Positions 36,720 to 37,685 of a DNA stretch of 44,376 bases are shown one piece after another. Position numbers and translations under genes: made by a program. Position 1 is the stretch's first letter. Each line of letters opens with the position of its first letter. Source of the stretch: a virus (lineage: Duplodnaviria > Heunggongvirae > Uroviricota > Caudoviricetes); the IMG/VR virus record IMGVR_UViG_2541047881_000004, positions 1 through 44,376 of that record; one strand, 5' to 3'. Under the pieces are notes generated by a model. That model saw nothing but the letters and a program-made list of their open reading frames with translations. It searched no databases and was not told the DNA's origin.

Positions 36720-37537
36720 GCAATCCCCCTGTCTGCAAACTTCCCTTCCCGAACTCCCGTTAACGAATCTTCCCTCAGCAGGTAATCAAAATCAGCTGTC
36801 CAGCCCGTGTCGTTGTCTCCGAAGTAAAACGGCTTGGCCTGATGCACAAACGCCCTGACATACGCTCTGAAACCGTCCACGTTTGGCGTTTTCAGTTGCG
36901 GGATGATTTTCTTCAGGCGGCGTTTGCGTTTCTCGTTGACCGCAACAGCGTGTGGCAGTCTGTCACCGACTTCGGTGTTGTAAGCGTTCAGGAAGGATTC
37001 GTAGTCGATTCGTTCTGCCTTGCGACGTTCAGGTTTAACCTGCCCATCGCCGCCCCCGTTAGGGGGTAAGGGGGTATTTGTATTTATTGTCTTTTGTATA
37101 TTGTCTTTTGTGTTTAGCTGACTTGGCTTATACCCATTAGCCGACTTGGCTAATGTTTTATTAGCTGTTTTAGCTAATGTTAAGCTGTCCTGGCTAATCC
37201 ACTGAGAAACCACCTTGTTCACTCCGATTTTCACGCCATCAGCAATGAGGAATTTACGCTCAATAAGCTGGCGCTTGGCAGCGCAAACATGAGTGTGATG
37301 AATACCTGTCATGGCTGCTATCTGCGTGTTTGTGAGTCGATCCATCGGCTTATTGAATCCGTATGTCTTGCGCATGATAGCGAGCATCACCTTCAACTGC
37401 CGGACGGTTAAATCAGCCATCAGCAGACTGTCGGTAATCTCGTTAGCAACGCGCATGAAACCATCTTCGGTATCTGCCACGCGATGCTCCACGACCTCCA
37501 GTTGAGGCCTGTAATCAGCTAACTTAACGACGCCCAT
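36716..37537 (-). CDS. O: Replication initiator O-like protein containing the origin
   Basis: 273 aa; N-terminal region ...[37 protein letters not shown] similar to lambda O; iterons and AT-rich region inside the gene. Confidence 0.85.
37040..37200 (-). repeat. Replication origin: four 19-bp iterons plus adjacent AT-rich region and a G-rich palindrome
   Basis: Iterons TTAGCTGACTTGGCTTATA (37114), TTAGCCGACTTGGCTAATG (37137), TTAGCTGTTTTAGCTAATG (37161), TAAGCTGTCCTGGCTAATC (37181); AT-rich 37076-37113; CCCCCGTTAGGGGGTAAGGGGG at 37051-37075. Confidence 0.8.
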
Positions 37538-37685
37538 GTTTCACTCCTGCTTTGGCTAGTCTGTAAACACCAACAAGGCGCTCTGCGAACGCCCTGTTAT
37601 TTGCTGCGGCTACCACTAATCCCTCAGGTGAATCAGGGTGTCGAATCTCTTCTTTTTCCTGGTATTTCTTACGACGTTTTGTCAT
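37524..37685 (-). CDS. Possible small basic protein between cII and O (53 aa)
   Basis: Hand-translated [61 protein letters not shown] 5 nt upstream; 3' end overlaps the O start in another frame. Confidence 0.3.
   Translation of the reverse strand: MTKRRKKYQEKEEIRHPDSPEGLVVAAANNRAFAERLVGVYRLAKAGVKHGRR

Follow-up and report, generated by a model that had tools for sequence, protein, structure and literature searches.

The 53-codon open reading frame (ORF) between cII and the O-like gene of this phage (37524..37685, minus strand) is already known as phage HK97 gene 53, which entered GenBank with the HK97 genome. We consider it likely that this is a genuine small-protein gene of the HK97-type early-right operon, standing at the 5' edge of the replication module. 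All positions are those of the window, by which we mean the whole 44,376-nt stretch of DNA that was analyzed. The region has 100% nucleotide identity to HK97 over 401 nt, with gene 53 at HK97 29720-29881. The sequence, the position between cII and an O-like gene and the overlap with O are all the same in HK97, and with no difference found this is that gene. The phage of the window is a mosaic, with an early region like that of HK97 and head and tail genes like those of lambda.

Gene 53 runs from an ATG at 37685-37683 to a TAA stop at 37526-37524. Its Shine-Dalgarno AGGAG (37691..37695, minus strand), which aligns with that of lambda O and is homologous to it, is separated from the ATG by 5 nt (TAATT). 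The product, Gp53, has 53 amino acids, a pI of 10.7, and 14 K+R against 6 D+E. Upstream lies cII (37718..38014, minus strand; Pfam Phage_CII, E=6e-32). Downstream are an O-like replication initiator (36716..37537, minus strand; Pfam Phage_rep_O, with the domain from residue 19) and, in the position of lambda P, a DnaB-like replicative helicase (35343..36719, minus strand; Pfam DnaB and DnaB_C). cII ends at 37718 and O starts at 37537, which leaves 180 nt between them; lambda has 32 nt (cII end 38653, O start 38686). The final 14 nt of gene 53 overlap the O ATG in another frame (AAACATGGGCGTCGTTAA). The original prediction had described a basic 53-aa ORF with AGGAG 5 nt upstream, a gap of about 180 bp against about 30 bp in lambda, and a 3' end overlapping the O start in another frame, and the sequence bears out each of these. 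It had also called the ORF unannotated, which is not the case: the identical sequence carries the annotation Gp53 in HK97 (NP_037738.1), and RefSeq E. coli genomes list it as 'hypothetical protein'.

The protein matches phrog_1331 over its full length (E=1.4e-37, residues 1-53 on profile positions 1-53), a family that the PHROG database labels as function unknown. Annotated homologues are Sf6 gene 42, ES18 gp58, epsilon34 gp49, g341c gp44, ST104 orf27 and Stx2 phage 1717 gp23. Gene 53 is present in 571 of 5,426 complete E. coli genomes (~10%), including many Stx prophages, and is also carried by P22-like Salmonella phages, so it is one of the most widespread of the lambdoid genes without a known function. 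As a discovery the ORF itself carries little weight, given that it is in GenBank and that its placement has been published: Hayes et al. 2012 (PMC3349717) describe the layout "cII-oop-orf-O-P" and name HK97 gp53. Our literature search found no study testing gp53, and 'HK97 gp53' returned only unrelated gp53 proteins.

There are many chance ORFs of 50-80 aa nearby, and the length of this one is not significant by itself. It stands above chance because its frame is conserved and its substitutions follow the pattern of coding sequence. In each of the 39 distinct homologous nucleotide sequences the gene 53 frame stays open, against at most 16 for each of the other five frames. For the substitution analysis we used 15 distinct homologues from 12+ genera. 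Across these, pN/pS was 0.265 for the whole ORF and 0.186 for codons 9-42, and nucleotide diversity at codon positions 1, 2 and 3 was 0.19, 0.12 and 0.45, respectively; within codons 9-42 the second position had a diversity of 0.066 against 0.468 for the third. Homologue indels are in frame only, and the Gp53 alignment has 14 invariant columns, among them Q9, E12, P20, G22, L23, V24, A27, F33, A34, R36 and G39. In the 3' part of the gene pS is lower (0.45 vs 0.66). From these substitution patterns, gene 53 reads as a protein-coding gene under purifying selection (pN/pS 0.19-0.27), and to this extent they support the small regulator suggested in the original prediction. As for relatives that might have lost the ORF while keeping the DNA, we saw the opposite, with synonymous sites diverging and the ORF retained.

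The start of gene 53 lies in the lambdoid 'boundary sequence' (37676..37712, about 33-37 bp), which we placed by alignment and which the Sf6 record annotates as bsq5. A 33-bp conserved region has been described here, with a shared -10 at the boundary and divergence starting at position -19 (PMC3349717). In the window it covers the 5' end of OOP, the -10 element of pO, the ribosome binding site and ATGACAAAAC. Homology with lambda reaches ATGACAAA and homology with P22 and HK022 reaches ATGACAAAAC, and there it stops. The cII-O junction of lambda has in common with this one the 3' end of cII, the OOP RNA, its terminator, the pO -10 (TGTCATAAT), the Shine-Dalgarno and ATGACAAA. In lambda that ATG opens O, whereas here it opens a 53-codon gene and O has a Shine-Dalgarno and an ATG of its own 148 nt downstream. 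The alignments thus show gene 53 using the ribosome binding site and ATGACAAA that serve O in lambda. The same slot, empty in lambda, holds an unrelated 48-aa ORF of the DUF2740 family (PF10872) in P22 and HK022, which we refer to as orf48.

The order cII-gene 53-initiator is the same in 172 loci and in the most divergent members. The genes upstream of gene 53 form 7 clusters, and among the downstream initiators there are 2 large classes that are not related to each other (89 and 77 loci) and 4 minor ones. In spite of this variety, the N-terminal decapeptide of the initiator travels with gene 53, and the same 10 residues are found in 151 loci. Many phages match the window only from just past the cII stop. 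The comparison shows gene 53 and the first ~10 initiator codons behaving as one inherited cassette, whatever the cII type or the initiator class. We should mention that our viral and metagenome scans returned nearly all identical copies, which are usable for synteny counts like these and not for covariation.

The cassette also keeps company with phage-encoded helicases. A DnaB-like helicase is present in 158 of 167 gene-53 loci and lambda P in none, the ES18 and epsilon34 loci have an ES18-type primase-helicase, the 80 orf48 loci have a DnaB-like helicase in 72 cases and a primase-helicase in 7, and the 74 lambda-P loci have neither gene 53 nor orf48, although all of these loci are highly non-independent, with most at least 99% identical and the lambda-P set at least 98% identical to lambda P. 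In the 58 lambda-P loci where the boundary motif was found, its ATG opens O itself, and it begins a 299-aa ORF in 54 of them. The link between gene 53 and helicase-encoding modules could be simple linkage. That gene 53 is paired with two unrelated classes of initiator and with two or more types of helicase speaks against Gp53 making specific contact with any one replication protein.

Our best guess, offered as a tentative conjecture, is that Gp53 is a translationally coupled accessory protein, not itself essential, of replication modules equipped with a helicase of their own, where it may bind a partner protein or nucleic acid. Lambda does without gene 53, and P22 and HK022 carry the unrelated DUF2740 protein instead. 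It is also possible, though less likely than not, that Gp53 is a host-directed or anti-defence protein of the 'moron-like' kind with no role in replication, and that the boundary sequence is a recombination hot spot. The slot does have three states (empty in lambda, DUF2740/orf48 and gp53), and two occupants without sequence relation are typical of accessory-gene hot spots. Gene 53 is found in free combination with different types of cII and classes of initiator, and it is at least 99% identical in 566 E. coli records although their flanks are mosaic. However, gene 53 lies inside the pR operon and lacks both a promoter and a terminator of its own, and in every locus it is fused to the translation start of the initiator, which is tighter than is usual for morons. 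Gp53 also had no PADLOC match, though the PADLOC library consists of defence proteins and not anti-defence proteins.

The likeness of orf48 to gene 53 is extensive as far as layout is concerned. It occupies the same slot and uses the same boundary sequence, ribosome binding site and ATG (first residues M-T/P-K), it encodes a protein of similar size and charge (48 aa, pI 10.4), its stop overlaps the initiator ATG too, in this case by 8 nt, and like gene 53 it precedes an initiator and a phage-encoded helicase. The two differ in their motifs (QPGRFRAE in orf48, HPDSPEGLV...AFAER in Gp53), and with orf48 only the MSN of the initiator is shared, compared with the decapeptide of gene 53 loci. BLASTP of gp53 against orf48/DUF2740 found nothing and hhalign gave a probability of 0.7%. 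We rejected Gp53 as a member of DUF2740, as it has no Pfam match at E<=1 while orf48 matches PF10872 at 2e-28. Judged by sequence and position, orf48 is a positional analogue of gene 53 and not a member of its family. The name itself needs care: the 'orf48' of the Silas et al. preprint is not P22 orf48 and comes from an unrelated numbering (gnarl1).

One could go further and regard Gp53 and DUF2740/orf48 as functional analogues, that is, small basic initiator-coupled factors that are required specifically by lambdoid modules with a DnaB-like helicase or primase-helicase of their own and are dispensable with a lambda P-type loader, with the cassette of ORF, hairpin and initiator leader possibly a portable unit that sets the amount of initiator. 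We think this unlikely. If it were true, such proteins might help to bring the helicase to the origin, or they might counteract a host factor.

The hairpin in question (AACAGGGCGUUCGCAGAGCGCCUUGUU; 37572..37598, minus strand) lies inside codons 29-38 (NNRAFAERLV) and has a predicted energy of -18.2 kcal/mol. An intrinsic terminator at this site was rejected because the U-rich tail is not conserved in homologues. A hairpin that serves in addition as a functional RNA or DNA element before O (for processing, pausing or attenuation), so that codons 29-38 are doing double duty, is in our judgment improbable. Across 15 diverged sequences 98% of the cells are paired, against about 50% in slid controls, and none of 500 shuffles reached the pairing or the covariation score, but related sequences can outdo every shuffle even where no structure exists. 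Compensatory changes occur at two pairs and include amino-acid changes at codon 32 that are matched by synonymous changes at codon 36. The hairpin region folds better than its shuffles (z = -2.9), and the P22 orf48 region likewise has a hairpin in its most conserved motif. On the other side, the hairpin falls on AFAER, the best conserved stretch of the peptide, and the AFAER codons are self-complementary by nature; the three most divergent members lack the hairpin, and a fourth has it in a different register; and the overall RNAalifold consensus is weak (-6 kcal/mol).

At the 3' end, gene 53 and O are arranged in the manner of a translationally coupled pair. In termination-reinitiation pairs the ATG of the second gene precedes the stop of the first by a few nt, and the Shine-Dalgarno of the second gene is within the first ORF. 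Here the overlap from the O start codon to the gene 53 stop (ATGGGCGTCGTTAA; 37524..37537, minus strand) is exactly 14 nt in 169 of 172 loci, with 26, 26 and 4 nt in the remaining three. The Shine-Dalgarno of O, AGGAG (37544..37548, minus strand), sits 6 nt before the O ATG, within gene 53 codons 46-48, so both the stop/start overlap and the internal Shine-Dalgarno of a coupled pair are found. The codon for Gly47 is GGA or GGG only in 38 of 39 homologues, which indicates that the O Shine-Dalgarno is kept; Gly39 has only GGT or GGC. In the minimum free energy fold, the HPDSPE codons pair over a long range with the O Shine-Dalgarno and AUG and would sequester both. This pairing is retained in 84% of cells and has no covariation support. 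A programmed +1 frameshift that would fuse Gp53 to O can be discarded, since in the O frame a TGA stands two codons ahead of the ATG, and CGU-CGU-UAA gives no re-pairing.

From this layout we infer that translation of gene 53 delivers ribosomes to the O start or exposes it. Gene 53 would be translated from the pR transcript, starting at the ribosome binding site and ATG that lambda uses for O, and its ribosomes would then allow Gp53 and O to be made together, presumably soon after infection or induction. The gene 53 start would coincide, on the opposite strand, with the -10 of pO, and OOP would target the 3' end of cII.

Another reading is that only the act of translation matters and not the peptide, with gene 53 a leader ORF that brings ribosomes to the O start or unmasks it and shields the mRNA from Rho or after OOP/RNase III cleavage. 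We hold this to be quite unlikely. The conserved stop/start overlap and internal Shine-Dalgarno fit such a leader, as does the use of the strong ribosome binding site that serves O in lambda, and P22 and HK022 show the same arrangement with an unrelated ORF that is similar in size and has an 8-nt overlap. However, the peptide of a leader should be free to vary, and unlike the dispensable leaders of coupled pairs, the product of gene 53 is a conserved protein. At the level of the peptide, the central part of the ORF, well away from either overlap, is clearly under purifying selection (pN/pS 0.186), with invariant residues that a pure leader would not keep. Our reading remains that gene 53 is a genuine small-protein gene, probably coupled, by its layout, to O.

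The 5' end of gene 53 probably serves the opposite strand as well. The probable -10 of pO, an extended -10 of the form TGtCATAAT (37680..37688, plus strand), was placed by sequence and by alignment to lambda, and the CAT within its hexamer is the gene 53 start codon read on the other strand. The oop promoter is annotated at the equivalent place in the P22 RefSeq record. The region of the pO -35 is not conserved with lambda, and a generic promoter scan did not call pO, there being no good -35. An OOP-like antisense RNA is predicted at 37696..37775 (plus strand) from its similarity to lambda oop and a terminator-like site. It is identical to lambda oop at 58 of 76 positions without gaps and has the same two-hairpin fold. 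Its 5' stem-loop lies in the spacer between cII and gene 53, its 3' part runs antisense to the last stretch of cII, and its terminator hairpin (37742-37769, plus strand) is followed by a run of T. The Rfam scan of 36500-39500 gave no match, OOP included. By its sequence features the window has a predicted OOP antisense RNA and pO unit of the lambdoid type, and on this reading the first ~40 nt of the cII-O gap has a second job, containing the pO -10 and the 5' end of OOP. The OOP transcript is established for lambda. OOP RNA was also seen by RNA-seq in the P22-like prophage BTP1 (PMC7067206), which has orf48 in the slot.

The alternative put forward in the original prediction, with promoters or terminators of the replication genes lying in the gap, is for the most part unsupported. 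pO is the only promoter-like element that we could place in it; it lies on the opposite strand and would drive OOP against cII rather than the replication genes. There is no conserved terminator. It is extremely improbable that the gap is a non-coding regulatory spacer of this sort with a fortuitous ORF: there is a strong hairpin (-18 kcal/mol) with a U-rich stretch inside the ORF in the window and pO at the ORF's 5' end, but no sense-strand terminator or sigma-70-like promoter was called, the U-tract is not conserved, divergent members lack the hairpin, pO points away from the replication genes, and the substitution pattern already contradicts it, with synonymous sites diverging freely and the ORF, its length and its residues kept across genera.

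Gene 53 is welded to the start of the initiator, and its start codon is shared with the promoter of OOP, which tunes cII. Together with how widely the gene is spread, this means that a knockout could bear on two questions: how replication starts in modules that have their own helicase and no recognised loader gene, and what links the synthesis of the initiator to the lysis-lysogeny circuit. Mutating the gene 53 start also alters the pO -10, and mutating its 3' end alters the Shine-Dalgarno and ATG of O, so genetic tests must allow for both overlaps.

The protein itself resembled nothing outside its family in our searches. There was nothing at E<=1 in Pfam, no match in NCBIfam or PADLOC, and 0 matches for both the sequence profile search of the PDB and the Foldseek search of the PDB with the AlphaFold2 model. 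Remote homologues were absent among 1.84 billion representative proteins, the profile search returning 26 proteins that were all of its own family. The AlphaFold2 model has a mean pLDDT of 68, which is only moderate confidence. In it residues 1-20 form no regular secondary structure and are of low confidence, and helices follow at 21-29 and 31-49. Approximately these first 20 residues contain a basic patch and then an acidic patch, the motif HPDSPEGLV is conserved, and the helix is predicted to be amphipathic. A role like that of lambda CIII, which inhibits FtsH by means of an amphipathic helix, is conceivable for Gp53. P22 has cIII besides its slot ORF, and the annotation of BTP1 has cIII alongside its slot ORF, which argues against the slot ORF being a simple replacement for cIII.

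The early-right operon of the window lies on the minus strand and runs cro (38371-38156), cII (38014-37718, Pfam Phage_CII), a 53-codon ORF (37685-37524), an O-like initiator (37537-36716, Phage_rep_O) and a DnaB-like helicase (36719-35343); cI occupies 38440-39141 of the plus strand. The original prediction placed an ORF of 53 amino acids between cII and O, and there is one; its strand, which the prediction did not give, is the minus strand. An AGGAG ribosome binding site does sit 5 nt ahead of its ATG, cII and O are separated by 180 nt where lambda has 32 nt, and the last 14 nt of the ORF, ATGGGCGTCGTTAA, hold the start of O in a different frame. 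All of these sequence statements were correct, which confirms the observation; the interpretation placed on it, a small regulator or a spacer with promoter or terminator elements, is partly supported. The window is mosaic: its early region resembles that of HK97 and its structural genes those of lambda. The HK97 match spans roughly 28.5-44.1 kb (early and regulatory genes, 96.6%), and lambda-type phages also match at 20.0-41.7 kb, through the head and tail genes. At about 37070-37200, within the O gene, iteron-like direct repeats (TTAGCYGACTTGGCTWAT and variants) border an AT-rich stretch; this is probably the replication origin, by analogy with lambda, whose ori is within O.

The ORF had also been called unannotated, and that did not hold up. 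Positions 37400-37800 are 100% identical to 29605-30005 of phage HK97, where the record annotates the ORF as Gp53 (NP_037738.1). Hayes et al. (PMC3349717) set out a cII-oop-orf-O-P gene order and cite this 162-nt HK97 gene as an example, and they describe lambda as a phage that "is naturally missing" the orf present in P22 (orf48). The ORF is HK97 gene 53 and already known; because it is annotated in HK97 and its relatives and named by Hayes et al., it is neither unannotated nor new. Homologues are usually annotated and always lie immediately upstream of the initiator gene. They include Sf6 gene 42 ("HK97 53 protein homolog"), ES18 gp58 ("function unknown; similar to HK97 gene 53"), epsilon34 gp49, and genes in g341c, ST104, many Stx1 and Stx2 phages and the HK and mEp coliphages, with more distant ones in Cronobacter, Erwinia and Enterobacter phages. 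Of 5,426 complete E. coli genomes, 571 contain the 162-nt ORF (at least 99% identity in 566 records), and PGAP labels it there as "hypothetical protein". The gene would be no surprise to a specialist in lambdoid phages; it is widespread and lies where several regulatory elements meet. Two loci came from a MAG labelled Bacillota (L003) and a record labelled Chryseobacterium sp. (L006), with Gp53 identities of 100% and 83%. Both are typical enterobacterial lambdoid cII-gp53-O-helicase modules, and their labels are most likely due to contamination or mis-binning.

When we aligned the region with lambda, homology ran from the cII 3' end across the spacer and Shine-Dalgarno sequence up to ATGACAAA and ended there; gene 53 thus begins at the codon with which lambda starts O. 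The shared block of about 33 bp is the boundary sequence treated in PMC3349717 and annotated bsq5 in Sf6. On the plus strand, a predicted OOP-like antisense RNA at 37696-37771 aligns without gaps to lambda OOP RNA (58/76 identical) and has the same two-hairpin fold, with a terminator hairpin at 37742-37769 and a T run to 37775. In the P22 RefSeq record the oop promoter and terminator are marked at equivalent positions, and RNA-seq of the P22-like prophage BTP1 detected an OOP RNA (PMC7067206). The probable -10 element of its promoter pO, TGtCATAAT, is at 37680-37688 on the plus strand, and the ATG of gene 53 sits within the -10 hexamer, so start-codon mutations would also affect pO. The suggestion that the spacer holds promoter elements for the replication genes is right only in a limited sense: the pO -10 element is in the gap, but pO faces away from those genes.

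We collected 183 gene 53 loci from 12 species genomes, phage records, 80 viral and 80 metagenome contigs and contigs with divergent members; among them are 27 distinct proteins and 39 distinct nucleotide sequences. The ORF is unbroken in all of them, with a length of 52-59 codons and in-frame indels. Its frame is open in 39/39 nucleotide versions, and each of the other five frames in at most 16. For 15 diverged sequences the Nei-Gojobori pN/pS is 0.265 overall and 0.186 for codons 9-42, a stretch clear of both pO and the O start. At the first, second and third codon positions, nucleotide diversity is 0.19, 0.12 and 0.45 over the whole gene and 0.17, 0.07 and 0.47 in its middle. This substitution pattern is the signature expected of a translated and selected protein, and is the opposite of DNA conserved with the ORF lost, which the original prediction took as the mark of a regulatory spacer. 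Judged by these comparisons, gene 53 is a conserved coding gene.

The family is a narrow one. When 1.84 billion representative proteins were searched with its profile, there were 26 hits, which are family members of about 30-85 amino acids save two weak matches to long proteins. PHROG 1331, labelled as unknown function, matches Gp53 over its full length (E=1.4e-37), while Pfam and NCBIfam searches found no family and the PDB no match by sequence. The AlphaFold2 model (pLDDT 68) has no regular structure in residues 1-20, where confidence is low (pLDDT 53-57), and predicts helices at 21-29 and 31-49; Foldseek found no match to it. The conserved residues are Q9, E12, P20, G22, L23, V24, A27, F33, A34, R36, G39 and A44, and N30 is almost invariant. 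A 13-bp hairpin (37572-37598, minus strand, -18 kcal/mol) in codons 29-38 overlies the most conserved peptide segment. Its pairing is kept in 98% of cells across the 15 diverged sequences, with compensatory changes at two pairs; slid controls are about 50% paired, and 0/500 shuffles matched its pairing or covariation score. The three most divergent members lack the hairpin, and homologues do not keep its U-rich tail. We regard it as a lead and not a finding.

At the other end, the stop of gene 53 lies exactly 14 nt past the initiator ATG in 169/172 loci, the remaining three having overlaps of 26, 26 and 4 nt. The O Shine-Dalgarno AGGAG (37548-37544, minus strand) is formed by codons 46-48; Gly47 is encoded by GGA or GGG only in 38/39 versions, Gly39 by GGT or GGC only, and synonymous divergence is reduced in the 3' part of the gene. 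A candidate long-range helix between the HPDSPE codons and the O Shine-Dalgarno/AUG is retained in 84% of cells, and a test for covariation showed none. Gene 53 shares its start with lambda O and pO and keeps an invariant overlap with the initiator. Translationally coupled gene pairs are laid out in this way, from which we infer coupling; gene 53 and O would be translated together from the pR transcript at an early stage of infection or induction.

The flanks are mosaic. Many phages align to the query only from immediately past the cII stop, and their upstream genes form 7 clusters (P22 c1-type in 138 loci, HK97/lambda cII-type in 31, and others). Downstream, the initiator DNA-binding region belongs to two large unrelated classes, lambda O / P22 gp18-like (89 loci, Phage_rep_O) and HK022 gp54 / Sf6 gp43-like (77 loci, no Pfam hit), and four minor ones. 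Despite this, a common N-terminal decapeptide opens the initiator in 151 loci; in the window it covers 37508-37537 (minus strand), outside the Pfam domain, which begins at residue 19. At least two unrelated classes, Phage_rep_O and HK022 gp54 / Sf6 gp43, share it when gene 53 precedes. The mosaic flanks and common decapeptide therefore identify a co-inherited unit of gene 53, the initiator translation start and its first ~10 codons.

In P22 (L020 2350-2496), HK022 (L019 1391-1537) and BTP1 (L190 30566-30712), the same boundary sequence, RBS and ATG are followed instead by orf48, a basic 48-aa ORF (Pfam DUF2740, pI 10.4) ending in an 8-nt overlap with the initiator ATG. BLASTP and hhalign found no similarity between it and Gp53. 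It is absent from the BTP1 RefSeq annotation, and P22 RefSeq calls it "tail protein", which is surely wrong. Neither ORF is present in 74 loci with lambda-type P, and the 58 of these with an identified boundary motif use its ATG to start O itself (299 or 312 aa). Gene 53 loci have a DnaB-like helicase downstream (158/167) or an ES18-type primase-helicase, never lambda P; the 80 orf48 loci have 72 DnaB-like helicases and 7 primase-helicases. Both small ORFs thus turned up only alongside phage-encoded helicases, DnaB-like or of the ES18 primase-helicase type. The association is suggestive, and may reflect plain linkage because the loci are far from independent.

Tentatively, Gp53 might serve replication modules that encode a helicase as a non-essential accessory, working through its charged tails and predicted amphipathic helix. 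The main rival, which we hold with about the same low confidence, is that Gp53 is an accessory protein directed at the host and lodged in a recombination hot spot. We consider a pure leader ORF improbable because the Gp53 peptide is under selection. A non-coding spacer is contradicted by the substitution pattern, and we give it hardly any credence.

ES18-type modules hold a second conserved micro-gene of the replication region, a 35-aa ORF between the initiator and the primase-helicase (epsilon34 gp51, L188 4001-4108; ES18 gp60, L017 3501-3608).
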